Shown one piece after another: positions 23,182-58,478 of a stretch of DNA of 64,000 bases. The position numbers and the translations under genes were made by a program. Each line of letters starts with the position of its first letter. The stretch's first letter is position 1. The notes below the pieces were generated by a model. It ran no database searches and was not told the DNA's origin. It saw only the letters and a list, made by a program, of their open reading frames with translations. The DNA comes from Planctomycetota bacterium (lineage in GTDB: Bacteria; Planctomycetota; UBA1135; UBA2386), in the NCBI GenBank assembly GCA_050245995.1, contig JBFWWV010000001.1:175437-239436 (forward strand), written 5' to 3'.

Positions 23182-25199
<2,018 letters not shown>

Positions 25200-25203
<4 letters not shown>

Positions 25204-40588: not shown

Positions 40589-43207
40589 CTACTTTCCGAC
40601 CATGGCGCGGTTCTCGAGATCGCGGATGTCCGTGATCCAGGCGCGCACCATGACCATCAGGCTGCGGTTCTCGTCGGCCATGCCTTCCTGCTTGAAGAAG
40701 AACGACAGCAGCGGCAGGCGGGCCAGCAGCGGCACCTCGGCGCGGCGCTCCTTGGTGAGCACCTGGCGAAGGCCGCCGAGCAGCACGGTGCCGCCGTCCG
40801 GCACGCGGGCCGTGGTGGCGAAGCTGGTGACCGTGAGGTTCGGCAGCTGCAGGGTGACCGGCAGCGTCGAGCCGGCGAGCGACGTCGTGAACGTCGGGAT
40901 CGGGCGGGTCAGCTCGGCGATGGTGGGGTTGAGGTTCAGGACGATGTACTTCCGGCTCTGCTCGATCACCGGCTGGACGTCGAGGACGATGCCGTCCTGG
41001 ATCACGTCGACCTTCGGGTCGGCGATGAACGACGCCTGCGCGACCTCGACGTCGAAGTCGCGGACGTAGGCGGTCTGGTTGATCACCGCGACGTGGCCGC
41101 GCTCGCGGTCCAGCACCGACAGGATCTGGCTGTTGACCACCTCGGCCTCCTCCTGCTTCTCGATGGCCTGCAGGACCATGTTGAGCTGGATGTCGTCGAG
41201 CCAGGTCCAGCTCGCGGTCAGGCCGCCGTCGGTCGACAGCGCGCGGCCGAGGTCGGACGCGAAGAAGTTCTCGCTGCGGCCGCGAACGTCGCCGTCGCCG
41301 CCGTCGTTGAAGAACGCGCCGGCCAGCGGGTTGGCGGCCGCGTCGCCGGTGCCGCCGTTGTCGAGGCCGCGCGACGCGTTGTTCTGCAGGCCGTTGGTGA
41401 CGTCGTCGAGGGTCGCGGTCGCGCCCTTGTTGCCGGCGCCGCCGAGGCCGCGGAAGTCGACGCCGACCTCCTGCAGGAAGTTGCGCGTGATCGTCAGGAA
41501 CTTGCTGTCGATCGTGACCACCGGCGTCGCGAAGCGGCGCATGTCCGAGAGCACGCCCTCGATGCGGCGCTGCATGTTCGGGCTGGCCTTGACGATCAGG
41601 TAGCCCGTGTCCTCGGGGCTGATGCTGACGCCCTCGTTCTCCCAGTAGGTCGGGTCGGTGGCGTCCTGCACGTTGGTGACGAGGTCGGCGATCTCGATGT
41701 AGGAGACCTTGTCGTCGCCCTCGCCGCCGGCGCGCGGCGTCTCGTCGAAGCTGTCGCCGCCGGGGATGTCGCGGATGCGCGGCGGCAGGAACTGCGTGCG
41801 CTGGAAGACCAGGTCCATCACGTTGTAGACCCGGCTGACGATGGTGCCCGACGCCTCGGACTTGTTGCCCATCACCACGACGCCGTTGCGCACGGTCCAG
41901 GCCAGGTTGGTGGCCTTCTGCACCATCAGGTCGAGGAAGTTGTCGAGCGTGATCGAGCTCACCAGCTCGACCGTCATCGTCAGGCTCTCCTCACCGATCA
42001 CGTCGCGGCCCTGCGGCGTGATGATGATCGGCACGTTGGTGACGGTCTGCAGGTTCTGCACGACCTCGAGGTAGTCGACCTCGCTGTAGTTCAGCTGGCC
42101 GACCGGCACGGTGCGGACCAGGTCCCAGACGGCGGCGTCCTGCGGGTCGATCGACTCGCGCGTGTCGACCGTGCCGACGCGGCGCTGGGCGCGCTCCCAG
42201 GTGGCCTCGTCGAGCTGCAGCACCTTGGTGTAGGGGACCTTCAGCTCCTCGCGCGCCTCGAGCAGGGAGCGGATCTCCTTGGCCTTCTGGTTGTAGTAGT
42301 CGTCGGCCGCCTGGTCGCGGGCCGCCTTGGTGGCGGCGTGCACCATGTCCTGGGCGATGGGGCTGCTCGGGTCGACGTCGAGGGCCTTCAGCGCGACGTC
42401 GCGCGAGTGCGCGAAGCGGCGGTTCTCGAACGCCATCTGCGCCTCGCGCAGCAGCAGGTCCATCTTGGCGCGGCGGCGGGCCTCGCTCGCCTGGCGCTCG
42501 GCGGCCAGCTTCTGCGCCAGCTCGTCGGCGAACTGCGTCGACACCTGGCGCTCCTGGGCGGCGAGCTGCTGCTCGGCGTCGCTGAGCAGGCCGTCGACCT
42601 GCGCGGGCAGGTTCATCCAGTCGATGCGGTCGCGGGTCTCGATGATGCGCTGCGCGTGCTGCAGCTCCTCGACCGCGCCGGCGAAGTCCTGGCTGCCCAT
42701 CCGCTGACGCGCGCGGTCCATCTTCTCGGTGACCAGGGCGCGACCGCGCTCGGCGGCGATCTGCTCCTGTTCGACCCACAGCTGGTGGATGTCCACCACG
42801 CCGCCGACCGGCACGCCCATCTCGGCCTGCACCGCGGCGATCATGTTGCGCACGCGCTCGTTCTCGGGCTGCAGGTCCTTGGCCTTCAGCAGTTCGCTGA
42901 GCGCGGCCTCGAGCTTGCCGTCCAGCCGCAGGCGCTCGCCCAACTCGAGGTAGCGGGTGACGAGCGCGGCGGTGCGCTGCTGGTCGAGCGTGCGCGGGCC
43001 CTGGCCCTGACCCTGCGGATCCTGCGCCGCGGTGGACGAGCCGGAGTCGTCCGTCATCGGCGCCAGGTCGCCCGGCATGTCCTCGGTCCCGGAGGTCCGA
43101 TCGGCCATGGCGGGGTCCGTGGCGTTGTCGCTCGACGTGGAGCAGGAGGTGCCGACGAGCGCGGCGACGAGGGAAGCAGCGAGCAGGCGCGGATGTTCGA
43201 AGGCCAT
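40589..43207 (-). CDS. Secretin-family outer-membrane channel (GspD/PilQ superfamily) with long helical N-terminal module
   Basis: ORF 40589..43387; start moved to ATG 43207 (MAFEHPRLLAASLVAALVGTSCS; signal, possible lipobox). About 350 aa TPR/coiled-coil-like. N0/STN-like block YLEVVQNLQTVTNVPIIITPQGRDVIGEESLTMTVELVSSITLDNFLDLMVQKATNLAWTVRNGVVVM. Secretin core ...TARVPDGGTVLLGGL...EVPLLARLPLLSFFFK. Confidence 0.88.
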   Translation of the reverse strand: MAFEHPRLLAASLVAALVGTSCSTSSDNATDPAMADRTSGTEDMPGDLAPMTDDSGSSTAAQDPQGQGQGPRTLDQQRTAALVTRYLELGERLRLDGKLEAALSELLKAKDLQPENERVRNMIAAVQAEMGVPVGGVVDIHQLWVEQEQIAAERGRALVTEKMDRARQRMGSQDFAGAVEELQHAQRIIETRDRIDWMNLPAQVDGLLSDAEQQLAAQERQVSTQFADELAQKLAAERQASEARRRAKMDLLLREAQMAFENRRFAHSRDVALKALDVDPSSPIAQDMVHAATKAARDQAADDYYNQKAKEIRSLLEAREELKVPYTKVLQLDEATWERAQRRVGTVDTRESIDPQDAAVWDLVRTVPVGQLNYSEVDYLEVVQNLQTVTNVPIIITPQGRDVIGEESLTMTVELVSSITLDNFLDLMVQKATNLAWTVRNGVVVMGNKSEASGTIVSRVYNVMDLVFQRTQFLPPRIRDIPGGDSFDETPRAGGEGDDKVSYIEIADLVTNVQDATDPTYWENEGVSISPEDTGYLIVKASPNMQRRIEGVLSDMRRFATPVVTIDSKFLTITRNFLQEVGVDFRGLGGAGNKGATATLDDVTNGLQNNASRGLDNGGTGDAAANPLAGAFFNDGGDGDVRGRSENFFASDLGRALSTDGGLTASWTWLDDIQLNMVLQAIEKQEEAEVVNSQILSVLDRERGHVAVINQTAYVRDFDVEVAQASFIADPKVDVIQDGIVLDVQPVIEQSRKYIVLNLNPTIAELTRPIPTFTTSLAGSTLPVTLQLPNLTVTSFATTARVPDGGTVLLGGLRQVLTKERRAEVPLLARLPLLSFFFKQEGMADENRSLMVMVRAWITDIRDLENRAMVGK

Positions 43208-44345: not shown

Positions 44346-44876
44346 CTACTTTGCCAGGCCTTTGCCCTTCAGCATCTTGAGCTCCTTGTCCTCCTCGGAC
44401 ATCGCGAGCTCGACCATCCAGAACGCAGCCTCGGGTTGGCTGCACTGCTTCATCACCTCGCCGACGTAGTGCCACTCGGTCCACTTGTCGGCGCGCAACA
44501 GGATCGGCTCGTCGACCAGCACCACGTCGCGTCCGCCGATGTTCTCGGTCGAGGTCTTGAGGTCGGTGGTCTGCTTGATGAGCTTCAGCATCGTCATGAT
44601 GCCGGAGTAGTCCTTGCCGTGGACGGCCGGATCGTACTGCACCTTGCCCTTGTAGTAGACCGCGCCGGTCTGCAGCAGGTTGATCACCGGACGGTTCTCG
44701 GAGGGCTGCTCGTCGGGCTCCTGGTACTTGGCCTCGGGGAGGATCAGGTCCTCGAGGTTCTGCTGGCTCAGGTCGATGATCAGCACGAAGAAGATCATCA
44801 GCAGGAAGACGCAGTCGATCATGGGCGTCATGTCCATCTCGACTGTCTCCTGCGCGATTTTGTTGAGGTTGGCCAT
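44346..44876 (-). CDS. exbD: ExbD/TolR-family biopolymer transport protein (second copy)
   Basis: DMTPMIDCVFLLMIFFVLII. 9-nt gap to the next exbD. Confidence 0.9.
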   Translation of the reverse strand: MANLNKIAQETVEMDMTPMIDCVFLLMIFFVLIIDLSQQNLEDLILPEAKYQEPDEQPSENRPVINLLQTGAVYYKGKVQYDPAVHGKDYSGIMTMLKLIKQTTDLKTSTENIGGRDVVLVDEPILLRADKWTEWHYVGEVMKQCSQPEAAFWMVELAMSEEDKELKMLKGKGLAK

Positions 44877-44961: not shown

Positions 44962-45675
44962 TCACTTGTCCTTGCGGAAGCGCTCGAAGAGGTCTTCGGC
45001 GATCGCGTTCACCTCGGTCGACATGCGCACCACGCGGTTGCGCAGGATGAAGAAGCAGACGCCCACGGGGATGGCGACCGTCAGACCCAGAATGGTCGTG
45101 ATCAGCGCCATCTTGATGCCCTTGGCGAGGATCGCCGGGCTGACCGAGCCGCCCGCGTCGGCGATGGTGCCGAACGTGACGAACATGCCCGACACCGTGC
45201 CGAACAGTCCCATCATCGGCGCGATGGCCGACATCAGCGACAGCCAGCCGATCTTCTGGAACAGCTTCACGGCCTCCTCGGTCTCCATTTCACGCACCGT
45301 GATCTGGATGGTCTCGAAGGGGTGGCCGAGCTTGCTGAGGCCGGCGCCGACGCAGCGGGTCAGGTAGTTCTTCTCCTGCTCGCACAGCTCGGCGGCCTCC
45401 TGGAAGTTCTCTTCGTCGAACAGCGCCTCGAGCTCGTCGATCATGTCCGGCGGCGCGAGCTTCTCGCGCTTGATGCTCATGAAGTTCTCGATGATGAGCG
45501 CGAGCGCCAGCACCGACATGAGCACGATCAGGTAGCCGATCGGGCCGGCGTTCTCGTAGGCGAAGATGTCGCCGATGACGCTGCGCGACTCGCCCTCCTG
45601 GGCGGTGGCGAAGGACGGCAGCAGCAGCGGCGTGGCCAGAGCGGCGAGACGGACGACAGGCGCGGGCAGATTCAT
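44962..45675 (-). CDS. exbB: MotA/TolQ/ExbB-family proton channel
   Basis: Real part of ORF 44962..46449; ATG at 45675 (MNLPAPVVRLAALATPLLLPSFATAQ, signal-like). IGYLIVLMSVLALALIIE, SAIAPMMGLFGTVSGM, KGIKMALITTILGLTVAIPV. Confidence 0.9.
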   Translation of the reverse strand: MNLPAPVVRLAALATPLLLPSFATAQEGESRSVIGDIFAYENAGPIGYLIVLMSVLALALIIENFMSIKREKLAPPDMIDELEALFDEENFQEAAELCEQEKNYLTRCVGAGLSKLGHPFETIQITVREMETEEAVKLFQKIGWLSLMSAIAPMMGLFGTVSGMFVTFGTIADAGGSVSPAILAKGIKMALITTILGLTVAIPVGVCFFILRNRVVRMSTEVNAIAEDLFERFRKDK

Positions 45676-45893: not shown

Positions 45894-47036
45894 TCACTTG
45901 GCGAGTTCCGCCCGGGCGGCGGCGGCCCAACGCGAGGTCGGGTAGCTGCGCGTCACGATCTGGAAGTAGGCCTTGGCGTCGCCGCCGGAGCCCTCGCCGA
46001 GGGCCCGCATGACGCGGCCCAGGTAGTAGTTGGCCTTGGCGCTGGTGTCGCCGGCGCCGGTGTCCAGCACGCAGGCCTCGGCCAGCGCGATCTGCGCCTC
46101 GCGCAGCTTCGCGGGGTTCTTGCTGTCGGCGGCGGCCAGGAACGTGGCCTCGCCCTGGCCGGCCTTGCCGGAGGCCGCCAGCGACGGATCCGGGTTCTGC
46201 GACAGCGAGCGGAAGTAGTCGGCGGCGCGCTGGAACTCCTTCTCGCGCACCAGGGTCTCGCCCTCGCCGACCTTCGAGTTGATCTTGATCGCCTCGAACT
46301 CGGGCCCCTTGCCGCCGGCCTGCGCCAGCGCGGTGTCGGCGGCCGATGCGGCGCTCTGGAACGCGCCGCGAGCCTCCAGGGTCTTGCCCTGGTCGAGCAG
46401 GCACAGCGCCAGCTCGTACTTGGCGCGGGCGCTCCACACGGCGCCCCAACCGTCGCGCACGGAGCGGTCGTCGAGCTCCTTGAGCGTGGTCTCGGCGTCG
46501 GCCTGGACCTGGCCCAGCCGCAGCGCGCGACCGAGCAGGTACATCGCCTCGGGCAGGTGCCAGTGCTCCGGGAATTCACTGATCCAGGCGCGCAGCGCGC
46601 CGGCCGCGTTGGCTGCCGCCGCGGGATCCGCGGCGCCGGCGCCTACCGCCGCCTTGCCCTGCAGGAAACGCGCCTCGGCCTTGAGCAGCTCGCGCTCGGT
46701 GCCGTTGGCGGCCTCGCCGTACAGCTGCTGCGCGGTCGCGAACTCGCCGCGCTCGAGCGCGGCCTCGGCGCCGACGAACGCGTCCGGGGCGCCGCCCCAA
46801 CGGATGCCGGCCACGAGGTGCGGCGGAATGTCGACCTCCTCGGTGCCGCGCAGCACCTTGACCGCACTCAGCGTGAACGTCTGCACCTTGACGCCGCGCA
46901 TGCTCGACCCGTCGGTCTTGAGCACGGTGTCGAGGGCTTCCTGCGCCGGGGCCAGCGCCGCGGCGAGCGCCAGGGCGAGGGCGGCGGACCCGGCGCGGAG
47001 GCGCGGGCGGGGCGTGGGGGACTGGTGCGTGGACAT
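45894..47036 (-). CDS. Periplasmic TPR-repeat protein (380 aa)
   Basis: Real C-terminal part of the 1407-aa track ORF 45894..50117; ATG at 47036 (MSTHQSPTPRPRLRAGSAALALALAAALAPAQE). TPR-like pairs (GEFATAQQLYGEAA, EAMYLLGRALRLG, AKYELALCLLDQGK, KANYYLGRVMRALG). Start shares 1 nt with the upstream stop (TGATG). Confidence 0.7.
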   Translation of the reverse strand: MSTHQSPTPRPRLRAGSAALALALAAALAPAQEALDTVLKTDGSSMRGVKVQTFTLSAVKVLRGTEEVDIPPHLVAGIRWGGAPDAFVGAEAALERGEFATAQQLYGEAANGTERELLKAEARFLQGKAAVGAGAADPAAAANAAGALRAWISEFPEHWHLPEAMYLLGRALRLGQVQADAETTLKELDDRSVRDGWGAVWSARAKYELALCLLDQGKTLEARGAFQSAASAADTALAQAGGKGPEFEAIKINSKVGEGETLVREKEFQRAADYFRSLSQNPDPSLAASGKAGQGEATFLAAADSKNPAKLREAQIALAEACVLDTGAGDTSAKANYYLGRVMRALGEGSGGDAKAYFQIVTRSYPTSRWAAAARAELAK

Positions 47037-49933
47037 CACGGGCGGTTCAGGTCGAAGTAGGTGAACAGGGTCATGCCGTCCTGGCCGAGCGCCTTGAGGC
47101 CGGCGAACTTGTCGAGCGCGCCGGTCACGCGGAAGATCGACGCGGCGTACTCCTTGTACGTGCTGTCCTTCTCGCCTGCCTGCTTGGCGAACCAGTAGCT
47201 CTCCCACTGGAAGCGGTACCAGTCGAGCGTGTACTTCTGGTTGTCGCGCAGCGCCCAGGTCCGGTACTCGGTGAAGTACTTGTCGTACGCCTCCTTGAAC
47301 CGACCGAGCGCCGGCTCCTTCACGCCGCGGCCGCTCTGGTTGATGTAGAACCAGCCGCCGAGCGCCTTGCAGATCAGCCGCTTGAGCTCGTACTGGTTGG
47401 GGTTCGCCTGCTCGGCGGCGAGCAGCATGTCGAGCGCCTGCTGGAACTGCCGCTGCTGCAGCAGCGCCTCGCCGATCTTCGGCCGCACGGTCAGGTCGAT
47501 CACGTCCTTGGTGCGCTCGTCGGTCTCGCTGCCGTAGAGCTGCAGCGCCTTCTGCGCGACCTCGTCGACCTTCTTCCAGTCGCCGAGCCGCTCGAAGGCG
47601 TTCATGGTGTGCACCAGGATGCCGAGCTGCGGCTGCTGCGAGTTGCGCATGTACTCGATGCCGAGGCCGGTCAGCTGCGTGCGCGCCTGGCGCAGGTCGT
47701 TGCGGAGCTTCTCGACGTCGGCGCCGGGCTTGTCGGTCGCGAACGCGGCGTCGAGCTCCTTGCTGATGTTCTCGGCGTGGTCGAGCTGGGCGGCGAAGAT
47801 CACGCTGGCGAGGCGCGAGGCGCGGCCCTCGTCGAGGTCCTTGAGCTGCATGTAGGCGGTGTTGGCCTTGGCGAGGTCGCCGAGGTCGCTGTGCAGGCGG
47901 CCGAGGTAGTCGATGGCCTGCGCCAGGCTGCTCTCCTTGGACTGGCCGTGGTTGGCGACGAACGCCTGCAGCAGTTCGATCGCGCGCGGGTACTTCGCGG
48001 TGTCCTTCTCGATCTTCAGACCGCTGTCGCCGTAGGCCTCGGCATAGGCCATGAAGGCCTGCGTGAAGTCCATCTCGCGGACGGCGAACTCGCGCACCTG
48101 CGCCTTGTCCGTGCGCTTGGGGTCGAGCACCGCCTCCTTGGTCTCGAGCCACTGCCGGTAGGCGTCGATGCCCGCGCGTGCCTTCTGGAAGTCGCCGGCG
48201 CCGCTGTAGGCCTTGACCATGCGCGCGCGCGCCAGCTCGTAGTAGAGGAAGTCCAGCGGCACCTGCGCGTAGGCCGCGGCCGCGGCCTCCCAGTTGCGCT
48301 CGCCGAAGTTCTTGTTGCCGTTCTTCCAGTGCACCTTGCCGGCGCCGGCGGTCGAGAACTCGAGCACCAGCGGCTCGGCGCCGTCGAACACCGGCTTCAG
48401 GTTGGCGTCGTTCTTGGTCACCGACTTCAGCGCCGTGACCGCGCGGTCGAGGCGGTCGGCGACGTCGCTGGCGGAGTCCGCCTCGCTGCCGTCGCCCTTG
48501 TTGCCGAACTTGCGCAGGCCCTGCTGCAGCGCCAGCACCGACTCCAGGTAGCGGTCGGTCGCGGCGAAGCACTTGCCGAGCATGTCGTAGGCCTCGAGGC
48601 CCAGCTCCTGCTGCTCGTCGGCGTTCATCGCCGCCAGCGCGCGACGCAGGCCCTGGATCGCGGCCTCGTGATTGTTGTTCTGGTACTCGCCCTTGGCGAT
48701 CTCGAACAACAGCTTGCCCGACACCAGGCTCTTCTGCGCCTCGAGGATGTCGCTGAGAACGGCCTTGGCCTTCACGCCGACGTAGTCGCTCGGGTGCTTG
48801 TCGTTGATCTTCTGCACCATCGCGAGCGCCTGCTGCACCTTCTTCGGGTCGCCCGACTCGGCCAGGAAGCGGCACTCGACCAGGAAGGTCAGGTGGCCGT
48901 GGCGCGGGTGGCAGACGTCGAGCGGGTCGAGGCCCTTCTCGCCGAACTTGGCCAGGTTGTCGTGGAACGACTGGAACAGGTCCTTGGCCGCGTCCATCTG
49001 GCCCTGCTCGAACAGCAGCTCGCTGAGGTGCGCGTAGACCTCCTGCATCATGTCGAACAGGAACGCGAGCGTCTCGCCGCTGAGCTCGGTGTCCTCCGAG
49101 TTGAGCGTCATCGCGATCGAGTCGATCGTGCCGCGGTAGGCGTCGATCGCGGTCGGCACCTTGCCGGCGACCTCGTAGCACTGCGCGATCTCGAACAGGC
49201 CGCGCAGGCCGAGCGCGGTCTCCTCGCCGACCTCGAGCACCATCTCCTCGAGCTCGCCGATCGCGCGGTCGATCAGGTGGCCGCGGTCCTGCTTGACCGC
49301 GCGGCCGTGCTCGCGCATCAGCACGCCCTTGCGCATCCACGTGAGGCCGTACTCGAGCTTCTTCTGCGGGTCCTTGGTCTCGGGCTCGAGCGTGCGCATC
49401 ACGCTGTCGCACGACTCGACGCCGAGGATGAAGACCTCCTTGGCCTCGTTCTCGAGCTCCTCGACGGTCTCGGGCGCGTCGACGCGCGCGATCTCGAGCT
49501 CCTCGTTGAGGAACTGGCCGAACTCCTGCGCCGCCTCGGCGAGCGTCGCGCGCGCGTCGCGCTGCACGACCGTGTCGCTGGAGCGTTCGAGCAGCTCCTT
49601 GCTCTGGTCGAGCGCCTTCTTGTAGTCGGCGCGCTGCTCGGTGCGGTTCTGCTTGATGCGCGCGCCGAACAGCGACACCTCGACGCGCAGCTGCAGGATG
49701 CGGTCCTGGTCGGAGGACGACTTGTAGGACTGCTCGAGCCGCGCCAGCTCGCTCTGCGCCAGCGACACGAGGCCCAGTTCGCGGGCCAGGCCGCGCACGA
49801 AGGTCATCTCGCGGTCGATCGGGGTCGGCGCTTGCGCTGCGGCGCTGGTGACCAGGGTGCCCAGCGCGATGGCCGTGGCGAAGAAGGAACGCGTCGCAGG
49901 GCCGCTGGGGCGGCACCGGGTGCGGTGGATCAC
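47036..49933 (-). CDS. Large periplasmic all-helical TPR-like protein (~965 aa)
   Basis: ORF 47036..49996. GTG 49933 preferred (GGAG 9 nt upstream), giving VIHRTRCRPSGPATRSFFATAIALGTLVTSAAAQA as signal. Normal, lower-GC composition, many helix-pair repeats (GDFQKARAGIDAYRQWL, LAKANTAYMQL, QFQQALDMLLAAEQANP). Confidence 0.7.
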   Translation of the reverse strand: MIHRTRCRPSGPATRSFFATAIALGTLVTSAAAQAPTPIDREMTFVRGLARELGLVSLAQSELARLEQSYKSSSDQDRILQLRVEVSLFGARIKQNRTEQRADYKKALDQSKELLERSSDTVVQRDARATLAEAAQEFGQFLNEELEIARVDAPETVEELENEAKEVFILGVESCDSVMRTLEPETKDPQKKLEYGLTWMRKGVLMREHGRAVKQDRGHLIDRAIGELEEMVLEVGEETALGLRGLFEIAQCYEVAGKVPTAIDAYRGTIDSIAMTLNSEDTELSGETLAFLFDMMQEVYAHLSELLFEQGQMDAAKDLFQSFHDNLAKFGEKGLDPLDVCHPRHGHLTFLVECRFLAESGDPKKVQQALAMVQKINDKHPSDYVGVKAKAVLSDILEAQKSLVSGKLLFEIAKGEYQNNNHEAAIQGLRRALAAMNADEQQELGLEAYDMLGKCFAATDRYLESVLALQQGLRKFGNKGDGSEADSASDVADRLDRAVTALKSVTKNDANLKPVFDGAEPLVLEFSTAGAGKVHWKNGNKNFGERNWEAAAAAYAQVPLDFLYYELARARMVKAYSGAGDFQKARAGIDAYRQWLETKEAVLDPKRTDKAQVREFAVREMDFTQAFMAYAEAYGDSGLKIEKDTAKYPRAIELLQAFVANHGQSKESSLAQAIDYLGRLHSDLGDLAKANTAYMQLKDLDEGRASRLASVIFAAQLDHAENISKELDAAFATDKPGADVEKLRNDLRQARTQLTGLGIEYMRNSQQPQLGILVHTMNAFERLGDWKKVDEVAQKALQLYGSETDERTKDVIDLTVRPKIGEALLQQRQFQQALDMLLAAEQANPNQYELKRLICKALGGWFYINQSGRGVKEPALGRFKEAYDKYFTEYRTWALRDNQKYTLDWYRFQWESYWFAKQAGEKDSTYKEYAASIFRVTGALDKFAGLKALGQDGMTLFTYFDLNRP

Positions 49934-50259: not shown

Positions 50260-52905
50260 TCAGCGGCTCGACGTCAGGATGCTGCCGTCCGGCAGCGCGA
50301 TCGCCTCGGGCTGCAGCTCCTCCATGATCACGATCTTGGCGTTGATCAGGATCAGGATCTTGCGGTTCTGCAGCGAGGTGCCCTTGCGGCTGAACAGGAA
50401 CGACAGGCCCGGCAGGTCCTTGAGGAAGGGCACGCCCGACGTCAGGTTCTGGCGTTCCACCAGGCGCATGCCGCCCAGCATCATCGTGCCTCCGTCCGGC
50501 ATCGTCACCGTGGTGCGCACGCGCTGCAGGGTCACCTCCGGCAGCTGGATCGAGATCGGCTGACCGACGCCCAGCGTGGTGGTGAAGTTCGGGATCGGCA
50601 GCTGCAGCGTCATCACCGTCGGGCGCAGCTCCATCGTGATGAACTTGAGGTCGCTGTCGACGACCGGGCGCACGTCCAGCGCGACGCCGTCGTGGACCGT
50701 GCCGATCACCGGGTTGGCGACCGCCGCGGCCTGCGCGATCTCGACCTCGAAGTCGCGGATGTAGCTGATGTTGCGCAGCACGTGCATGCTGGCGCGGGTG
50801 TTGTTGTAGATCAGCAGGCGCGGCGCCTCGATCTGCTCGCTGCGCTCCTGCTTGCTGACCGCGCGCAGCACGGCCTCGACCTCGGTGTCGTCGAGGAAGG
50901 CGTACTGCAGCGACAGGCCGCCCGCGTTGGTGAGGCCGTCCGACGTGCCGCCGAGCGTGCTGTCGAACAGGTTCTCGGCGCGCGCCATCAGGTCGCCGTC
51001 GTTGCCGTCGTCGAAGAACAGGCCGGGCTCGGTGCCGGTGCCGACCGGGCCGGGGGTGGCCGGGTTCTGCTGCTGGCTCGGGCCGAAGTCGTCGAAGCCG
51101 GCGTTCTGGCGCGGGCCCTGCTTCTCGAGGCCGCGACCGGCCAGGCCCTGGGCCGCCTGGTTGCCCAGGCCGCGGAGGTCGACGCCGACGTCCTCGAGGA
51201 AGTTGTCCTCGACCTTCAGGAAGCGCGACTCGACGTCGACCTGGATGCCGACGTTGCGGCGCAGGTCGGCGAGCAGCTTGACGATGCCGTTGTGCGTGTC
51301 GCGGTCGGCGCGCACCAGCAGCATGCCGGCCTGGAAGTTCATCGTGAACGGGCTGCCTTCCCACATGCCCTCGGCGATCGCCTCCTTCAGGATGTCCTGC
51401 AGGCGGCTCTCGTCGACGACCGACGGCATCGGGTCCTCGTCGACCTCGGGGAACAGCGGCGAATCGTCGTCGGGGGCCTTCAGCTTCAGGTTCGGGCCCG
51501 GCTTGCTGCGGAAGCCCTGCACCAGGTCGCTGACCTTGTAGCGCTCGTAGTAGAGCGTGCCGATCGCGTTCTCGGGCGTGACCAGCTGCACGAGGCCGTG
51601 GTTGACGCGGTAGCCGACGCCGGTCTGCGCGCGGATCACCTTCAGCGCGTCGGCGACCGAGCGGCGCGACAGGCGGAAGTCGGTCAGCGTGGTGGTGTCG
51701 GCGTCCATGCCCTCGACGTCGGCGCCGACCAGGAAGGTCACGCCGGTGAGGTTGCCGTAGTAGGTCGCCCAGTCCTGCACCGTCGCGCTCGGGAAGTTGT
51801 GCTCCAGCACGGTCTCCTCGAGCTTCTTGGCGATGGCCTGGTTCTCCGGGCTGTCGAGCTCGCTCGGCGACGTGAACGACGCCGACTTGCGCTGCGACAC
51901 CTCGGCCCAGCGGATCGGGTCGAAGACCACCGTGTCGGTCTGCGGCAGGTTGGCCTGGCGCAGCTCGAGGATGGTGGCGTTCCACTCCTGGCGCCAGCGC
52001 TCGCGGTGCAGCTCGAGCGCGGCGTTGTGGCGCGCGCGGTCGGCCAGGTCGCGCAGCGCGACGGTGGCGGCGTTGGTCGGGTCGATCAGCAGCGCCTGGT
52101 CGACGCGCTCGACGGCGGCCGCGTACTGGCCCGACTGGAACTGCAGGTTGGCGTCCTCGAGCAGGCGCTCGATGCGCACCTCGCGGGCCTGCTGCTGGTC
52201 GCGGGCGATGCGGGCGAGCTCGGCCTCCGAGGCGGCGCGCATCGACTCGAGGTTCTGCTTGTCGGCCTCGACCTTGCGGCCCTGCGCGCTCTGCAGCTCC
52301 ATCTCGGCGCGGCGCAGCAGCGGGTCGTTGGGCTGGAAGTGCGGCGACAGGCGCAGCGTCGCCAGCGCGCGCTGGTAGCTCTCGATCGCGCGGCCGAAGG
52401 CCTGCTGCTCCATGTAGGCGTTGGCCTGCTCCAGCTCGCGCTCGACCAGCGTGCGGTCGCGCTCGGCGGCGATGCGGTTCTGCAGGATCTGGTCGCCGAA
52501 GCGGTCGCCGGTGCTGGCCACGCGATCGCCCAGCACCGCGTTGCAGCGGCGCAGGATGTCGCGGGCCTCCTCGTTCTGGTTGTCCAGCTCGAGCGCGAAG
52601 GCGGCCTCGTTGCGCGCGTCCTCGAACAGGCGCGCCTGCATCGAGCGGCGGGCGTTCTCCAGCGCCTGCTGGACGAGGGCCTGGTTGCCCTGGCGGCCCT
52701 GGCCCTGGGGGTCCTGGGGCGCAGCGGCGCCGAAGTCGTCGAACGGCGCGCTGGCGAGCGTCTCGGCCGCGGCGGGCGCGGGTTCGCCCATCGCCTGTCC
52801 GTTGTTCCCCGTGCCGGGGTTCGCCGTCGTGCCGGAGCAGGCGGCCAATGCGAGCAGCGAGGACGCATAGAGGCCGCGAAGGCGCAGGGTCTCAACCTTG
52901 ATCAT
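50260..52905 (-). CDS. Secretin-family outer-membrane channel, lipoprotein-type, paralog of 40589..43207
   Basis: MIKVETLRLRGLYASSLLALAACSG (lipobox LAAC). About 350 aa TPR-like (YMEQQAFGRAIESYQRAL, FQSGQYAAAVERVDQALLIDP). N0-like VQDWATYYGNLTGVTFLVGADV...SVADALKVIRAQTGVGYRVNHGLVQLV. Secretin core TVTMPDGGTMMLGGM...GVPFLKDLPGLSFLFS. Confidence 0.88.
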   Translation of the reverse strand: MIKVETLRLRGLYASSLLALAACSGTTANPGTGNNGQAMGEPAPAAAETLASAPFDDFGAAAPQDPQGQGRQGNQALVQQALENARRSMQARLFEDARNEAAFALELDNQNEEARDILRRCNAVLGDRVASTGDRFGDQILQNRIAAERDRTLVERELEQANAYMEQQAFGRAIESYQRALATLRLSPHFQPNDPLLRRAEMELQSAQGRKVEADKQNLESMRAASEAELARIARDQQQAREVRIERLLEDANLQFQSGQYAAAVERVDQALLIDPTNAATVALRDLADRARHNAALELHRERWRQEWNATILELRQANLPQTDTVVFDPIRWAEVSQRKSASFTSPSELDSPENQAIAKKLEETVLEHNFPSATVQDWATYYGNLTGVTFLVGADVEGMDADTTTLTDFRLSRRSVADALKVIRAQTGVGYRVNHGLVQLVTPENAIGTLYYERYKVSDLVQGFRSKPGPNLKLKAPDDDSPLFPEVDEDPMPSVVDESRLQDILKEAIAEGMWEGSPFTMNFQAGMLLVRADRDTHNGIVKLLADLRRNVGIQVDVESRFLKVEDNFLEDVGVDLRGLGNQAAQGLAGRGLEKQGPRQNAGFDDFGPSQQQNPATPGPVGTGTEPGLFFDDGNDGDLMARAENLFDSTLGGTSDGLTNAGGLSLQYAFLDDTEVEAVLRAVSKQERSEQIEAPRLLIYNNTRASMHVLRNISYIRDFEVEIAQAAAVANPVIGTVHDGVALDVRPVVDSDLKFITMELRPTVMTLQLPIPNFTTTLGVGQPISIQLPEVTLQRVRTTVTMPDGGTMMLGGMRLVERQNLTSGVPFLKDLPGLSFLFSRKGTSLQNRKILILINAKIVIMEELQPEAIALPDGSILTSSR

Positions 52906-53235: not shown

Positions 53236-53295
53236 CAGTCGATGGCCCAGTCTGGGGCCCAGTCGGGGATTCAGTCGGGGATTCAATCGGGGCCT
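53236..53295. repeat. 12-bp tandem repeat, 5 units, abutting the UDG stop codon
   Basis: cagtcgatggcc cagtctggggcc cagtcggggatt cagtcggggatt caatcggggcct. Confidence 0.85.
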
Positions 53296-54209
53296 CAGCC
53301 CGGCGCGGTCGGCGGCACCTCGGGGCGGCCGAGCAGGCGATTGACCCGCTTGATGTCCTCCCAGGTGTCGCGCTTCCTGGCCGGCTCGCGCAGCAGGTAG
53401 GCGGGGTGCCAGGTCACCACGACCGGGGTGCCGCAGTAGGACAGGTCGCGCCCGCGCAGCGCGCGCATCGGCTCGGTGGTCGACAGCAGGTTGTGGGCGG
53501 CGACGCGGCCCATCGCCACGATCACCTTGGGCTGCAGCAGCTCCACCTGCTGCTTGAGGTACGGCAGGCACGCCGCGACCTCGTCGGGCTCCGGGTCGCG
53601 ATTGCCCGGCGGGCGGCACTTGTTGACGTTGGCGATGAACACGTCCTCGCGGCGCAACCCCATGGCGCCTTCGAGGATGCGGTCGAGCAGCTGGCCGGCC
53701 GGACCGACGAACGGGCGGCCAGTGCGGTCCTCGACGGCGCCCGGCGCCTCGCCGACGAACAGCACCGGCGGGGTCGAGGTGCCCTCGCCGAAGACGACCG
53801 AGCGCCGGCCCTCGCACAGCTTGCACTTGCGGCACTGGAGGACCTCGGCGCGCAGCGCGGCGATCGCGGGGTGCTCGGCGCCGGCTGGGGGCTCGGGTGT
53901 TGGCGGCGAGGCCGCAGGGGCAGCGGCCGCCGCAGCGGGCGTCGATGCCGGCGTCCTGGGTGCGGGCGCGGGGCGGCTCCCGACTGGAGTCGAGGCTGGC
54001 GGGCTCGCGGCCGCCGGCGCGGCGCCGGGGCGCCAGCCGCGGGTCGGGCGCGCCGGGGCCGATTCGGCTTCCTCCCGATCGTCGGCCGCGCCCGCCTTGG
54101 CGGGGTGCGACGTCGCGGGCGGCGGCTTCACCGGCAGCAGCAGGTCGGGCCCGTAGGCTGCGAGCGCGCCCTCCAGGTGCTGCAGCAGGGGATCGCGCGC
54201 GGGGGCCAC
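53295..54209 (-). CDS. Uracil-DNA glycosylase, family 4, with Pro/Ala-rich N-terminal extension
   Basis: CRKCKLCEGR, FVGEAPGAVED, GPAGQLLD, NVNKCRPPGNRDP, VTWHPAYLLR. Confidence 0.9.
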   Translation of the reverse strand: MAPARDPLLQHLEGALAAYGPDLLLPVKPPPATSHPAKAGAADDREEAESAPARPTRGWRPGAAPAAASPPASTPVGSRPAPAPRTPASTPAAAAAAPAASPPTPEPPAGAEHPAIAALRAEVLQCRKCKLCEGRRSVVFGEGTSTPPVLFVGEAPGAVEDRTGRPFVGPAGQLLDRILEGAMGLRREDVFIANVNKCRPPGNRDPEPDEVAACLPYLKQQVELLQPKVIVAMGRVAAHNLLSTTEPMRALRGRDLSYCGTPVVVTWHPAYLLREPARKRDTWEDIKRVNRLLGRPEVPPTAPG

Positions 54210-55388: not shown

Positions 55389-55481
55389 GCGCGGGAGCGT
55401 AGCCGGGCGCCGGCGCAGAGCAGCGGCTCTGGTCGTTGTTGGAGAACGGGCGGGGTGGACGCCGGCTGCCCGCCGTGCATC

Positions 55482-58478
55482 ATGTCGGGCCGCACTGGCC
55501 CGGCCGCGATCGCGCCGGGCGACCCCTCGGTGACGATCTCTTCTGCTCCTCCTGCCGCGCGGCCCTGCCCAGCCGACCTGCCGCTCGACCCGTCCGCGCT
55601 GCGGGCGCGGTCGTGGTGGTTCGGCCTGCCCGGGTGCCTGCTGTTGGCGCTGCTGGCGTGGCTGCCGACGGCGCTGCGGGCCGAGTTCCTGAACTTCGAC
55701 GACCCGTTCTTCTTCGGGCCGGACAACCCGCTGTTCCGCGCCGCCGCGGAGCGGGCGCAGGAGCACGGGGTGCTGGCCGGGCTGGCTACGGTGCTCGATC
55801 CGCGGCAGCTGGTCGCCGACGTCTACCTGCCGGTCGCGCACGGCTCGCTGTGGCTCGACTACTGGTGGTTCGCGCCGGACCCGCGCGGGCCGCACGTGAT
55901 GGCGGTGCTGCTGCACGCGCTGGCCGGCTTCGCGCTGCTGCGCTGGCTCACGGCGATGCGGCTGCCGGCGGCGCTGGCCGCGACGGCGACCGCGGTGTTC
56001 CTGGTGCACCCGGCGCTCGGCGAGTCGGTCGCCTGGGTCAGCAGCCGCAAGGACGTGCTGAGCGGCCTGTTCGTGTTCGCCGGCATGGCGCTGGTCGCGC
56101 GCGCCGGGCGCGGCGCAGGCCTCGGGCTGCTGGTGGCGCTCGCCGCGTGCGGCGTGCTGGCGATGTACTCGAAGGCCACCGCCGTCGTGCAGCCGCTGCT
56201 GGCGGTGCTGGTGTGCCTCTACACCGGCGGCGCGCGCAGCCGGTGGCTGGCGCCGCTGGTGCTGCTGCTGGTGACCGCGCCGATCGCGTGGCATCACCAG
56301 CTCAACGCCGCGACCGCGGGCACGATGGTGGCCGGCGGCGCGGCCGAGCGGCTGACGCAGGTGCCGGGCGCGTTCGCGCACTACCTGGCGACGGCGCTGT
56401 GGCCGCGCGGGCTCAACGTGCTCTACCCCGAGGTCGCGACGCTCGAACGGTTCCGCGATGCGCTGTGGTGGACCGCGCCGCTCGTGCTGGTCGTCGTGGC
56501 GCTCGGAATCTGGAGCTGGACGCGGCCGCGGCTGCGCGCGGTGGGCTTAGGCGCCATCGGCTTCCTGCTGGCGCTGCTGCCGTTCAACACCGCGTGGCCG
56601 GCGTCGGTGATCGCGGTCGCCGATCGCTACCTGTACCTCGCGGTGCCGTTCGCGGCGGTCGCGGTGCTGGCCTCGCTGCGGCCGCTGCTGCGGCGGCCGG
56701 CGCTGGTCGGCGTCGCGCTCACCGTGCCGCTGCTGCTGGCGACGTGGTCGCGCGCGCCCGCATTCGCGAGCAGCGGCGAGCTGTGGGAACGGAGCCTCGC
56801 CGCCGACGCCGACAACGCCGTCGCGCTGCTGAACCTGATCCAGGCGCGTTCGCCGTTCGCCGTCGACGTCGCGTGGGCGCGGCCGCTGGCCGAGCGCGCC
56901 GCCGAGGCCGCGCGCTACCCCGAGCACGCGCGAAGGGCGCACCTGCTGCTCGCGCAGTACGCGCTCGCCGAGCACCGCTACCAGGAGGCCGCGCAGCAGA
57001 CCGACGCGGCGCTGGCGGCCACCGAGCGCATCGGCGAGTCGGGCCGCGTGCTGCCGGCGGTCGTCGACGCGCTGCGCGCCCGCACGCTGGTGCTGGCGAT
57101 CACGCCGTACCGGCTGGCCGGCCGGCTCGACGACGCGCGCCGCGCGCTGCAGCGCGCCGAGCAGGTGGCGCCCGACGATCCCGGCGTCGTCGCCGCGGCG
57201 GTGCTGCTCGAGGTCGAGGCGTTGGCGGCGGAGCTCGCGGCGCCTTCCGCACCGGCACCCGATGGCGCGGCCCCATCGACGGCCCCATCGACCAAGCCGC
57301 GGCTCGCCGACGACGACCCACGCGTGCGCACCGTGGCCGAACGCATCCAGCGCGCGCGCGCGACGACGCCGGACGCGCCCGAGGTCGAGTGCGCCGCCGG
57401 CACGTTCGCGCGGCTGCGCGGTCGGCAGCTCGAGGCGATCGCCTGCTTCCGCCGCGCGCTCGCCAAGAACCCGGGCATGGTCGACGCGTGGCTCGGCGCC
57501 GCCGAGGTCTGCCTCGACAACGGGCTGTGCGCGGAGGCCGAGGACTACGCGCGGTCGGGCATCGCCACCAGCCGCCAGCTCGGCCAGCCGGTCGACCCGC
57601 GCCTTCGCCTCGCGCTGGTGCGCGGCCTGCAGGGGCTCGGCCGCATCGACGAGGCGATCGAGTCGCTGCGCGTCTACGTCGAGCAGCGGCCGCGCGACCG
57701 CGACGCGGCGCGGCTCTACTCGGGTCTCCTGATGCACAAGGCGCGGCAGCGGCTCGCCGACCCCGAGGTCACGCACGCCGAGCTGGAGCGGCTGGTCGAG
57801 CGCGCGCTGGCGGCCAATCCGCAGGAGCCGGCGGTCGACCTGGTGCGCGCGCGCATGCTGCGCGACCGGCGCGAGTTCGCGGCCGCGGTCGAGGCGCTCG
57901 ATCGGCTGGCTCTGGCGCTGCCCGACTTCGAGGACACCCGCGCGATGCTGGCCGAGAACCTGCGCGACCTCGGCTACGAACGGCTGTTCGCCGGCGACGA
58001 CGACGGCGCGGCCGCAGCCTGGGTGCGGTTCGTCGGGCTGGCGCCGCGGCAGGTCGACACCGAGGCGGTGCGCATGCAGCTGAAGGCGATCTGGCGCCGC
58101 GCCGAGGAGCGCGGCATCGCCGCGCGGCAGGCGGGCGACGAGGTCGCGGCGCAGCGCGCGTTCCGGCAGTGCCTGCAGATCGACCCGGACCACCACTGGG
58201 CGGCGTGGCTGCTGCTGACCGGGTTGCTCGACGACCCGGCGGCGGATCCGGTCGAGCTGCAGGACCTCAGCGACAAGGCGCTGCGCTGGCAGCAGCAGCA
58301 CGGCCTCGACCGCAGCCGGCAAGTGGCCGCGCGCGCCATGGTGCTGCGCCGCGTCGGGCGCGGCGAGGAGGCGCTTGCGCTGGTCGACGGCTACCTCGAA
58401 GGGCCCGACGCCGAGGCGCCGCCGCCGGTGCTGTCGATGCTGCGCCAGCTGCGCGGCGACCTGGCGGAAGGCCGCTGA
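55482..58478 (+). CDS. TMTC-like membrane protein: polytopic N-terminal glycosyltransferase-C-like/DUF1736-type domain + C-terminal TPR array
   Basis: In frame within ORF 53184..58478; ATG 55482. About 10 TM helices after FLNFDDPFFFGPDNPLF. HPALGESVAWVSSRKDVLSGLF. C-terminal TPR-like repeats (AIACFRRALAKNPGMVDAWLGAAEVCL, etc.). Confidence 0.7.
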   Translation: MSGRTGPAAIAPGDPSVTISSAPPAARPCPADLPLDPSALRARSWWFGLPGCLLLALLAWLPTALRAEFLNFDDPFFFGPDNPLFRAAAERAQEHGVLAGLATVLDPRQLVADVYLPVAHGSLWLDYWWFAPDPRGPHVMAVLLHALAGFALLRWLTAMRLPAALAATATAVFLVHPALGESVAWVSSRKDVLSGLFVFAGMALVARAGRGAGLGLLVALAACGVLAMYSKATAVVQPLLAVLVCLYTGGARSRWLAPLVLLLVTAPIAWHHQLNAATAGTMVAGGAAERLTQVPGAFAHYLATALWPRGLNVLYPEVATLERFRDALWWTAPLVLVVVALGIWSWTRPRLRAVGLGAIGFLLALLPFNTAWPASVIAVADRYLYLAVPFAAVAVLASLRPLLRRPALVGVALTVPLLLATWSRAPAFASSGELWERSLAADADNAVALLNLIQARSPFAVDVAWARPLAERAAEAARYPEHARRAHLLLAQYALAEHRYQEAAQQTDAALAATERIGESGRVLPAVVDALRARTLVLAITPYRLAGRLDDARRALQRAEQVAPDDPGVVAAAVLLEVEALAAELAAPSAPAPDGAAPSTAPSTKPRLADDDPRVRTVAERIQRARATTPDAPEVECAAGTFARLRGRQLEAIACFRRALAKNPGMVDAWLGAAEVCLDNGLCAEAEDYARSGIATSRQLGQPVDPRLRLALVRGLQGLGRIDEAIESLRVYVEQRPRDRDAARLYSGLLMHKARQRLADPEVTHAELERLVERALAANPQEPAVDLVRARMLRDRREFAAAVEALDRLALALPDFEDTRAMLAENLRDLGYERLFAGDDDGAAAAWVRFVGLAPRQVDTEAVRMQLKAIWRRAEERGIAARQAGDEVAAQRAFRQCLQIDPDHHWAAWLLLTGLLDDPAADPVELQDLSDKALRWQQQHGLDRSRQVAARAMVLRRVGRGEEALALVDGYLEGPDAEAPPPVLSMLRQLRGDLAEGR

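Follow-up and report, generated by a model that had tools for sequence, protein, structure and literature searches.

Two lipoprotein-type secretins are encoded in the planctomycete window analysed here (the whole stretch of 64 kb), on either side of a set of TPR and proton-channel genes. To which group of secretins do they belong, what might the helical region ahead of their ring domains contribute, and are the genes between them part of the same machine?

Two paralogous secretins

A secretin reading frame had been proposed in the preliminary description of this DNA for each of the two intervals below. Both are present and lie on the minus strand; the plus-strand reading yields no protein.

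50260..52905, minus strand: Sec1, an 881-aa lipoprotein-type secretin (NCBI AB7O97_00840, "hypothetical protein"), based on its translation, Pfam and an AlphaFold2 model
40589..43207, minus strand: Sec2, an 872-aa lipoprotein-type secretin and paralogue of Sec1 (NCBI AB7O97_00810)

Sec1 begins with MIKVETLRLRGLYASSLLALAAC/SG and Sec2 with MAFEHPRLLAASLVAALVGTSC/S, where the stroke marks the lipobox cut. The NCBI call of AB7O97_00810 is 33 residues too short. Sec1 was recovered as a 100% match to entry P0001 in the homologue search. The Pfam Secretin domain (PF00263, cut-off 27.5 bits) scores 86.8 bits in Sec1 and 78.8 bits in Sec2 at residues ~681–859, and no other Pfam domain exceeds its cut-off in either protein. 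The same domain is above its gathering score in all 55 family members scanned. Sec1 and Sec2 align end to end with 32% identity (E = 8e-99), and Sec1-like and Sec2-like orthogroups split cleanly in every locus. The two are ancient paralogues.

Lipobox, tether and helical module

The N-terminal part of each protein consists of a lipoprotein signal, a linking segment and a helical module.

52837..52905, minus strand: Sec1 signal peptide and lipobox (residues 1–23; LAAC, Cys23)
52696..52836, minus strand: Sec1 low-complexity tether (residues 24–70; pLDDT 31–39 in the model)
51952..52695, minus strand: Sec1 helical module (residues 71–318; AlphaFold2 models, sub-threshold TPR matches)
42107..43018, minus strand: Sec2 helical/TPR module (residues 64–367, aligned to Sec1 residues 66–365 in alignments A3 and A4)

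Lipoprotein signals had been claimed for both proteins, and each signal peptide indeed ends in a lipobox with an invariant Cys (LAAC in Sec1, GTSC in Sec2), as in the liposecretins HxcQ, BfpB, TcpC and PilN, the Cys being conserved among orthologues. The sequence LAAC/SG with Cys23 occurs in 105 of 120 Sec1 orthologues, the rest being largely gene calls truncated at the N-terminus. Of 113 Sec2 orthologues, 96 have a PROSITE-type lipobox, typically G[TAV]SC/ST with the Cys at approximately position 22. The GTSC of Sec2 itself fits the PROSITE PS51257 pattern, applied as a regular expression. Cys23 is at least 90% conserved in alignment A2, which contains 55 diverse homologues at 23–63% identity; this family-wide conservation rules out a chance match to the lipobox. 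A relaxed lipobox rule is satisfied by 57 of the 74 full-length representatives at 50% identity. Because approximately one-fifth of the distant full-length members have an SPase-I-type signal or no detectable signal (some of them are truncated gene calls), the family does not strictly require a lipid anchor.

The tether sequence shows no conservation among orthologues, and AlphaFold2 predicts residues 1–72 of Sec1 (signal peptide and tether) to be disordered. The module that follows is predicted with a pLDDT of 83–95 in the full-length model and 86.4 when modelled alone. It contains three TPR-like hairpins with connecting helices of 34, 63 and 40 residues, and short helices extend beyond it to residue 364. 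The preliminary description had assigned ~350 residues of helical-repeat or coiled-coil sequence to this region. Its helical character stands, in the form of TPR-like hairpins and long helices, and all four of the TPR-like peptides that it quoted are present in the translations. The length does not stand, because the disordered residues 1–72, the module at 71–318 and the helices up to 364 leave a structured part of ~250–295 residues. The all-helical models also bear out the proposal that the module takes the place of N1-N2 or AMIN domains. AMIN domains, which occur in many but not all PilQ proteins, were found neither in Sec1 or Sec2 nor in the 55 family members, and an ordinary N0-N3 or AMIN N-terminus was rejected on these grounds.

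The TPR matches of the individual proteins in Pfam are sub-threshold (residues 160–182 and 253–283 in Sec1; TPR_11/TPR_2 at 86–131 in Sec2). Across the family, TPR_2 is found at E ≤ 1e-3 in 49 of 55 members, and a consensus TPR matches profile positions 84–131.

Secretin arrival and assembly in the outer membrane usually depend on separate pilotins. The best Foldseek matches of the module were consensus TPR designs (E = 1e-4, TM ~0.2), and the pilotin PilF (2ho1; E = 0.014, TM 0.16–0.21) matched no better than BamD. No pilotin was among the best 60 PDB profile matches of the module. The PilW and Tgl models of NCBIfam match neither Sec1 nor Sec2, and PilW matches one of the 55 family members (1.1e-7). 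The similarity of the module is that of a generic TPR with nothing pilotin-specific; neither its sequence nor its fold showed a specific relation to PilF, PilW, Tgl or TadD. Of the roles suggested in the preliminary description, namely a built-in pilotin, a docking platform for the neighbouring TPR proteins or a peptidoglycan-spanning spacer, such matches favour none over the others.

Ring domains and secretin core

The remainder of Sec1 is divided as follows.

51811..51951, minus strand: conserved linker (residues 319–365), motif PQTxxxVFDPxRWAxVSxR
51535..51810, minus strand: N0/STN domain (residues 366–457; AlphaFold2 secondary structure)
51208..51411, minus strand: single N3-like ring domain (residues 499–566; AlphaFold2 model)
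50908..51171, minus strand: Gly-rich insert, predicted to be disordered (residues 579–666; pLDDT <50)
50326..50907, minus strand: secretin beta-barrel core (residues 667–860; Pfam PF00263)

In the linker, Arg339 is invariant in 75 sequences, Trp333 is at least 90% conserved, and Pro321 is invariant in alignment A3. Positions 372–455 of the family profile match the N0 structure of PilQ (4ar0), and Pfam STN is detected in 14 of the 55 family members. Positions 521–860 align to Vibrio cholerae PilQ (6w6m), and both the AlphaFold2 model and the profile matches give Sec1 an N0 domain together with an N3-type ring domain. The G/D/F positions of the Gly-rich insert are conserved in the family consensus. 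In Foldseek, the top match of the Sec1 core was PilQ 6w6m (4.9e-13), followed by BfpB 9u5s (1.2e-12). A single N0 followed by the secretin core is what had been described from the sequence, and one N3-like domain can be placed between the two. The pTM of the full-length model is 0.38, which makes its domain orientations unreliable.

Relationship to known secretins

Sec1 and Sec2 score far below the cut-offs of all the curated secretin subfamilies, so that the subtype assigned here rests on ranking and context. The PilQ model (TIGR02515, cut-off 284) gives 73.7 bits for Sec1 and 60.9 bits for Sec2, and the GspD model (TIGR02517, cut-off 351) gives 62.7 and 59.3 bits. NF042912, the "Amuc_1098 family type IV pilus outer membrane protein", is matched by all 55 family members, far below its cut-off, and is the top family by best E-value (8.6e-42); PilQ and MshL rank after it. 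The Sec1 match spans residues 214–720 and so includes a portion of the helical module along with N0 and N3. At 89.9 bits for Sec1 and 45.4 bits for Sec2 against a cut-off of 750, neither protein is a member of this equivalog.

Amuc_1098 is the PilQ of Akkermansia muciniphila, for which three N-terminal TPRs "resembling pilotins" and an outer-membrane location were described in 2016 (PMC4960237). Its characterisation is confined to abundance and outer-membrane location (PMC4960237), and a 2026 paper on the protein is silent on domains. Like Sec1, it is a ~900-aa secretin with N-terminal TPRs, and Sec1 and Sec2 share its architecture of a TPR region fused to a secretin in the PVC superphylum. 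The architecture and the pilotin idea are therefore not new, as both are already published for Amuc_1098. That the architecture might turn out to be a well-annotated, characterised family had been named as a point against the preliminary reading, and this holds in part, for Amuc_1098 and its model NF042912. The Planctomycetota proteins are annotated as "hypothetical", and JGI names many homologues "GspD/PulD". Akkermansia has one such gene, whereas there are two ancient paralogues here. Its cluster contains the FtsA-like Amuc_1101 (PMC4960237, PMC5332112), whereas the Sec genes adjoin an ExbB/ExbD/TPR module, with no PilM-like gene in the window.

Among solved structures, profile and Foldseek searches place V. 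cholerae PilQ and BfpB, a lipoprotein secretin, closest to the family. The liposecretins HxcQ and BfpB/TcpC (type IVb) have a lipobox Cys and a flexible tether, as Sec1 does. HxcQ continues with N0-N3 after its linker, and none of HxcQ, BfpB and TcpC is known to have a TPR module. The HxcQ of Pseudomonas aeruginosa is described as self-piloted by its lipid anchor (Viarre 2009, as cited in PMC12475490). In the PilQ systems with PilF, PilW or Tgl, and in the Tad system with RcpA and TadD, a secretin and a lipidated TPR element also meet at the outer membrane, but as separate proteins. In Sec1 the TPR element is fused, has only three hairpins with long helices between them, and is accompanied by no AMIN domain.

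Genomic context points to a type IV pilus-type secretin family. A PilM_2/FtsA-like gene and two to three other genes lie directly upstream of the Sec1 orthologue in five relatives (L083, which is Ca. Uabimicrobium helgolandensis, L085, L084, L052 and L053). This order resembles both the Amuc_1098-1102 cluster of Akkermansia and the pilM...pilQ-like gene order of type IVa PilQ. Among the genes of the 64-kb window that were examined, tblastn included, none is of the pilM/N/O/P type, and the search for PilM-like genes, pilins, PilB/PilT and PilC was negative. Upstream of the UDG gene lies a 389-aa gene that matches no family and is dissimilar to the PilM-like genes of the relatives.

Distribution of the family

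How widespread the architecture is had been raised as a point for a survey, and it proved to span several hundred sequence clusters in Planctomycetota. A search with Sec1 residues 24–451 alone retrieved 397 representatives at E ≤ 1e-3 (127 at E ≤ 1e-10), most of which are 860–950 aa long with the module at the N-terminus. The architecture defines this family. At least 424 loci were located in species-representative genomes. The best 80 of these are nearly all labelled Planctomycetota or planctomycete, with a few "bacterium" and one Gemmatimonadales. The locus search used alignment A3 because the diverse alignment A2 was too divergent, and with this narrower query the 80 loci kept are biased to one clade. 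A further homologue search with the family profile returned mostly the same close orthologues.

A proposed lipid-anchored secretin with a pilotin-like module

We consider it somewhat likely, with a probability of roughly 55%, that Sec1 and Sec2 are duplicated PVC-type liposecretins of the PilQ lineage, which includes Amuc_1098, that they belong to a type IV pilus-like machine, and that the TPR module is a pilotin-like element in cis. Both proteins would be exported by the Sec system and lipidated at the conserved Cys, which implies cleavage by signal peptidase II. The Ser-Gly or Ser-Thr after the Cys, with no Asp at position +2, would direct the anchor to the inner leaflet of the outer membrane, although such sorting rules are not established for Planctomycetota. 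From the anchor, a flexible tether of ~47 residues would lead to a rigid helical module of ~250 residues, and then to N0, one N3-like ring domain and the secretin barrel. The anchor and TPR module would most likely supply in cis what PilF/PilW/Tgl, TadD or the bare anchor of HxcQ supply elsewhere, namely Lol-dependent targeting to the outer membrane and stabilisation of the multimer. The module may also offer periplasmic partners a place to dock. Self-piloting and a role in a pilus are likewise predicted from the architecture and its context, and the two channels would form part of the pilus-like machine.

Genes between the two secretins

Five genes separate Sec1 from Sec2.

47036..49933, minus strand: secreted helical-repeat/TPR protein, 965 aa (start codon uncertain), with a signal-peptide-like N-terminus and sub-threshold to weak TPR matches
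45894..47039, minus strand: secreted TPR protein P381, 381 aa, weakly CpoB/YbgF- and BamD-like
44962..45675, minus strand: ExbB/TolQ/MotA-family proton channel, 237 aa (PF01618, 82.7 bits; GTVSGM and ITTILGL motifs; PDB ExbB and TolQ both matched at ~1e-7 to 1e-8)
44346..44876, minus strand: ExbD/TolR-family protein 1, 176 aa (PF02472, 58.3 bits; transmembrane Asp in TPMIDCVF)
43770..44291, minus strand: ExbD/TolR-family protein 2, 173 aa (PF02472, 46.3 bits; transmembrane Asp in TPMIDCVF)

Neighbouring TPR proteins had been predicted, and these are the 965-aa and 381-aa proteins. PDB sequence searches were empty for both, and the larger one has no NCBIfam match. The 965-aa gene and the P381 gene share 4 nt, at the stop of the former and the start of the latter. 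The MotA_ExbB and ExbD domains are above their cut-offs, and the transmembrane Asp and Thr motifs of a stator are intact. No energy transducer of the TonB, TolA or GltG type was found among the cluster genes. The 560-nt gap ahead of Sec2 has no coding signal.

The new point of this study is that in many related genomes Sec1 and Sec2 stand on either side of a TolQ/TolR-like, proton-driven motor. Two secreted TPR genes and ExbB-ExbD-ExbD lie between the secretins on the same strand in 43 of the 50 loci with enough flank. The arrangement is kept down to 34% Sec1 identity and both in a genome of 52.5% GC (L086) and in others of 73% GC. In the other seven loci the motor is absent between the secretins, and in some loci (L060, L076 and L077) Sec2 follows Sec1 directly. 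Mostly, the gene after the Sec1 orthologue is that of the 965-aa TPR protein. The UDG-family and HAD genes on the flanks show the same degree of synteny, and gene order by itself therefore does not demonstrate function. The median gaps beside the secretins (275 nt between Sec1 and the 965-aa gene, 448 nt between ExbD2 and Sec2) are as large as that between UDG and Sec1 (427 nt). True coupling is limited to two pairs, the 965-aa and P381 genes (21 nt, 41 loci) and the two ExbD genes (9 nt). Synteny as proof of cooperation between motor and secretins was accordingly rejected.

These gaps and flanks fit a tentative alternative for the motor, which is compatible with the PilQ-lineage explanation and which we regard as less likely than not. 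ExbB-ExbD-ExbD and the CpoB-like and TPR genes would form a Tol-like envelope-maintenance system unrelated to the secretins, positioned by inherited synteny, and the only partner of the secretins would be a pilus machine whose genes lie elsewhere. P381 weakly resembles YbgF/CpoB (TIGR02795, E = 1.9e-11) and BamD; in NCBIfam the first-ranked model is TolQ for ExbB and TolR for ExbD, and in some loci the two secretins are adjacent. However, all Tol-type matches are far below their cut-offs. TolA, TolB and Pal are absent from the cluster, and the arrangement is preserved in genomes that differ widely in base composition.

That persistence speaks for the opposite view, which we consider rather unlikely: that the two secretins, the two secreted TPR proteins and ExbB-ExbD-ExbD are one trans-envelope machine driven by the proton-motive force. 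The modules would dock the TPR proteins and link the channels to the motor, with gating, macromolecule uptake or an Agl/Glt-like surface function as possible outcomes. In L052, PilM-like genes, Sec1, two TPR genes, ExbB, two ExbD and Sec2 form a single co-directional run; L058 has the same layout, its PilM-like genes being unconfirmed. In two loci that lack ExbBD (L011 and L035), the 965-aa TPR gene still follows Sec1. The composition also matches the core of the Agl/Glt system of Myxococcus, in which one TolQ-like and two TolR-like proteins (AglR/Q/S) accompany the secreted TPR proteins GltD/E (PMC3169522). The weakly CpoB-like TPR protein is a point in common with Tol-Pal. Unlike Agl/Glt, Tol-Pal and Ton, the Sec cluster has no TonB/TolA/GltG-like transducer and no GltA/B/H/K, TolB or Pal, and its outer-membrane partners, if any, would be the secretins. 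Against a single machine stand this missing transducer, the synteny and gaps described above, the seven loci without a motor between the secretins, and the distant members L083 and L085, in which ExbBD is not nearby. Our literature search found no paper linking secretins to ExbBD in Planctomycetota, and nothing relevant on crateriform structures and secretins. Less probable still is the specific proposal that the block from Sec1 to Sec2 is an undescribed Planctomycetota envelope machine, in which two lipid-anchored rings would be coupled mechanically through their helical TPR modules and the secreted TPR proteins to a TolQR/AglRQS-like stator; PilM-like genes precede the block in some lineages, and the proton-motive force, not solely a cytoplasmic ATPase, would power or gate it.

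It is very unlikely that Sec1 and Sec2 are GspD-type secretins for folded proteins or nozzles for slime or exopolysaccharide, with the TPR region guiding the polymer as in the TPR-porin fusions BcsC, PgaA and PelB: the JGI names, the GspD structures among the Foldseek matches, a BY-kinase-type ATPase gene 4 kb away and the PilQ/GspD slime nozzles reported in cyanobacteria and myxobacteria (PMC12475490) favour this, but the GspD model scores lowest among the pilus/T2SS secretin models, N0 and one N3-like domain are present instead of N0-N3, no gsp gene was found in the window or its flanks, relatives have PilM-like neighbours, and the conserved cluster contains no polysaccharide synthase.

Implications for Planctomycetota

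If the adjacency is mere synteny, the gain is one of annotation: ~400 proteins called "hypothetical" or "GspD" become PVC-type PilQ-like liposecretins, and the Sec2 start codon is corrected. If the motor link is functional, it would connect secretins to energisation by the proton-motive force and would be relevant to the envelope biology of Planctomycetota, which is poorly understood. These bacteria have few TonB-dependent receptors and, to our knowledge, no canonical Tol-Pal system, and macromolecule uptake has been reported in them. In this large family from uncultured Planctomycetota, a single polypeptide has both a lipid anchor and a TPR module. The family supports the idea, raised for the Akkermansia PilQ, that PVC bacteria fused a pilotin-like element to the channel, and it offers a natural setting in which to test the actual contribution of pilotins.

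Two secretin genes and their translation starts

The window, with a G+C content of 73%, encodes two paralogous secretins, Sec1 and Sec2, which share 32% identity in an alignment spanning the full length of both. The third-codon-position G+C confirms that the two ORFs named in the preliminary description are real genes, both on the minus strand.

Secretin genes of the window
50260-52905, minus strand: Sec1, 881 aa
40589-43207, minus strand: Sec2, 872 aa if read from the ATG at 43207

The ATG of Sec1 is the first start codon past the upstream stop, and the protein matches the record 'MAG: hypothetical protein AB7O97_00840 [Planctomycetota bacterium]' with 100% identity. The Sec2 start at 43207 is supported by the N-termini of its orthologues and by the loss of coding signal upstream. 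The NCBI record of Sec2 (AB7O97_00810, 839 aa) starts at Met34 and therefore omits the signal peptide and lipobox (43106-43207, minus strand). Because 96 of 113 orthologues carry these elements, the start codon is probably mis-annotated there.

The lipoboxes previously noted in both secretins are retained among their orthologues. LAAC|SG (Cys23) occurs in 105 of 120 Sec1 orthologues, and a PROSITE-type lipobox, typically G[TAV]SC|ST (Cys about 22), in the same 96 Sec2 orthologues; sequences without it are mostly truncated gene calls in both sets. Among 55 homologues (23-63% identity), the cysteine is at least 90% conserved, unlike the residues that follow it. A relaxed lipobox rule is satisfied by 57 of 74 full-length 50%-identity representatives, and several of the others have ordinary signal peptides. 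From these motifs, we infer that Sec1 and Sec2 are lipidated.

Domain architecture

The C-terminal Secretin domain is the sole domain above the Pfam cut-off in Sec1 and Sec2, and TPR matches lie below the threshold. AlphaFold2, run on Sec1 with a 48-sequence alignment (mean pLDDT 70.9), divides the protein as follows.

Segments of the Sec1 model (AlphaFold2)
Residues 1-72: disordered, signal peptide and tether
Residues 71-318: helical module, pLDDT 83-95
Residues 330-364: short helices
Residues 366-457: N0
Residues 499-566: single N3-like domain
Residues 579-666: Gly-rich insert, low confidence
Residues 667-860: secretin barrel

Modelled alone, the helical module reaches a pLDDT of 86.4; it consists of three TPR-like hairpins in the model, with first helices lengthened to 34, 63, and 40 residues. 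In the family profile, positions 84-131 match a consensus TPR, 372-455 the PilQ N0 domain (4ar0), and 521-860 Vibrio cholerae PilQ (6w6m). A Foldseek search with the whole model places PilQ 6w6m at the top, followed by the lipoprotein secretin BfpB. The modelled segments and the profile and Foldseek matches indicate that the N-terminus is neither N0-N3 nor AMIN, in agreement with the preliminary description. The helical module proposed there is present, but its structured part comprises about 250-295 residues rather than ~350.

A pilotin function built into this module, also suggested earlier, gained no specific support from the searches. A Foldseek search with the module alone returned consensus TPR designs (E 1e-4, TM about 0.2) and, at E 0.014, PilF beside BamD and many unrelated TPR proteins, and no pilotin was found among the 60 best PDB profile matches; the similarities are those of generic TPRs.

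A linker motif, PQTxxxVFDPxRWAxVSxR, is located between the helical module and N0 (Sec1 residues 319-365; 51811-51951, minus strand). The highest conservation in the N-terminal half is found in this linker (P321, W333, and R339), not in the TPRs; R339 does not vary across 75 sequences, and W333 is conserved to at least 90%. The linker may be a partner-binding site.

Relation to Akkermansia PilQ and spread of the family

The layout of Sec1 and Sec2 is shared with Akkermansia PilQ (Amuc_1098, 907 aa), whose secretin domain spans 650-876 and whose N-terminal domain carries three TPRs 'resembling the pilotin proteins' (Ottman et al. 2016, PMC4960237). The NCBIfam model of the Amuc_1098 family, NF042912, is the top-ranking family and is matched by all 55 diverse members scanned (best E 8.6e-42). 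Sec1 (89.9 bits) and Sec2 (45.4 bits) fall far below its cut-off of 750, and the Planctomycetota proteins constitute a separate, unannotated branch. The earlier interpretation is supported in part, but in view of Ottman et al. 2016 and NF042912, neither the TPR-secretin layout nor the idea of a built-in pilotin is new. Judged from sequence, Sec1 and Sec2 are PVC-type TPR-PilQ proteins, and what is new here is a duplicated, putatively lipidated branch in Planctomycetota.

With the N-terminal 428 residues of Sec1 as the query, 397 representatives among 1.84 billion were matched at E<=1e-3, of which 127 reach E<=1e-10; the matches are mostly 860-950 aa long. The 55 sampled members contain Secretin (55), TPR_2 (49), and STN (14) domains. 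Species-representative genomes hold at least 424 family loci, and almost all of the best 80 carry Planctomycetota or planctomycete-lineage labels; one named member comes from Ca. Uabimicrobium helgolandensis.

The Amuc_1098-1102 cluster contains, together with Amuc_1098, the FtsA-like Amuc_1101 (PMC5332112). In two loci with distant members (L083 and L085), a PilM_2/FtsA-like gene precedes the secretin together with two or three unknown genes, and a third locus (L084) has the order UDG / PilM-like / two genes / Sec1-like / Sec2-like. PilM-like genes, the TPR/ExbBD module, and both secretins form one run in L052; L058 has the same layout with putative PilM-like genes, and L053 has PilM-like genes without the ExbBD module and Sec2 downstream. 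The PilM-like genes upstream in these relatives argue that the family is one of pilus-type (PilQ-like) secretins.

Gene neighbourhood

Five genes lie between Sec1 and Sec2.

Genes between Sec1 and Sec2 (all minus strand)
Secreted 965-aa helical-repeat protein (TPR965)
Secreted 381-aa TPR protein (P381), weak CpoB/YbgF and BamD similarity
ExbB/TolQ, one gene
ExbD/TolR, two genes (ExbD1 and ExbD2)

The motor residues of the ExbB and ExbD proteins are intact, and the cluster has no TonB-, TolA-, or GltG-like gene. The recurrent order in related loci is UDG / Sec1 / TPR / TPR / ExbB / ExbD / ExbD / Sec2 / HAD. Of 50 loci with sufficient flank, 43 have the motor between the two secretins, among them one in a genome of 52.5% GC (L086), and 7 lack it there. 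Sec1-like and Sec2-like orthogroups are distinct in every locus, which makes the duplication an ancient one. Sec1-like and Sec2-like genes adjoin without the TPR/ExbBD module in L084 (10001-15573), L060, L076, and L077; in L011 and L035, the TPR gene(s) alone are left after Sec1.

The ExbD2-Sec2 gap (43208-43769, about 560 nt) shows no coding signal. L002 has two genes at this position, one of 177 aa and one globin+ankyrin, and L086 has a sulfatase+TPR gene; the site seems to be a variable insertion point.

Other genes of the window
53295-54209, minus strand: UDG-superfamily gene flanking the cluster, N-terminal extension of roughly 140 residues
39517-40239, minus strand: HAD hydrolase gene, on the other side
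55401-58478, plus strand: TPR protein of about 1000 aa, hydrophobic N-terminal segment
35552-36313, plus strand: BY-kinase-type P-loop ATPase (TIGR01007, 120.5 bits, cut-off 108)
36310-37104, plus strand: 264-aa coiled-coil protein, beside the ATPase gene
37133-38230, plus strand: MamK-family actin-like protein (NF040964, 403 bits, cut-off 400)
17898-19694 and 19916-21667, minus strand: pair of neighbouring ORFs, each about 590 aa, strong coding signal, no Pfam match to either
23182-25203, plus strand: FHA-GAF-sigma54 activator, 4-nt overlap with the start of the next gene
25200-28451, plus strand: Ser/Thr protein kinase, 1083 aa, next to the activator

The gene of the ~1000-aa TPR protein is divergent, lies upstream of UDG, and keeps this position in most loci whose upstream flank is long enough; its product matches the Tgl pilotin model weakly, below threshold (25 bits, cut-off 225). 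In L002, L011, and L035, the BY-kinase, coiled-coil, and MamK genes are likewise grouped next to HAD/Sec2.

Possible coupling of the motor to the secretins

Most of the 80 related loci carry the UDG gene, and many of those with enough downstream flank carry HAD. These genes, which have no evident tie to the cluster, are just as syntenic as the motor, and synteny is therefore weakened as evidence of function. Median gaps are 275 nt for Sec1-TPR965, 448 nt for ExbD2-Sec2, and 427 nt for UDG-Sec1; those within the module are 21 nt (TPR965-P381) and 9 nt (ExbD1-ExbD2). In the Myxococcus Agl/Glt core (PMC3169522), a single TolQ-like gene is combined with two TolR-like genes and secreted TPR proteins, a composition that the cluster resembles. 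Functional coupling of the secretins to the ExbB-ExbD-ExbD motor is conceivable, and we consider it rather unlikely. What deserves follow-up in these loci is the conserved placement of the secretins next to a TolQR-like stator.
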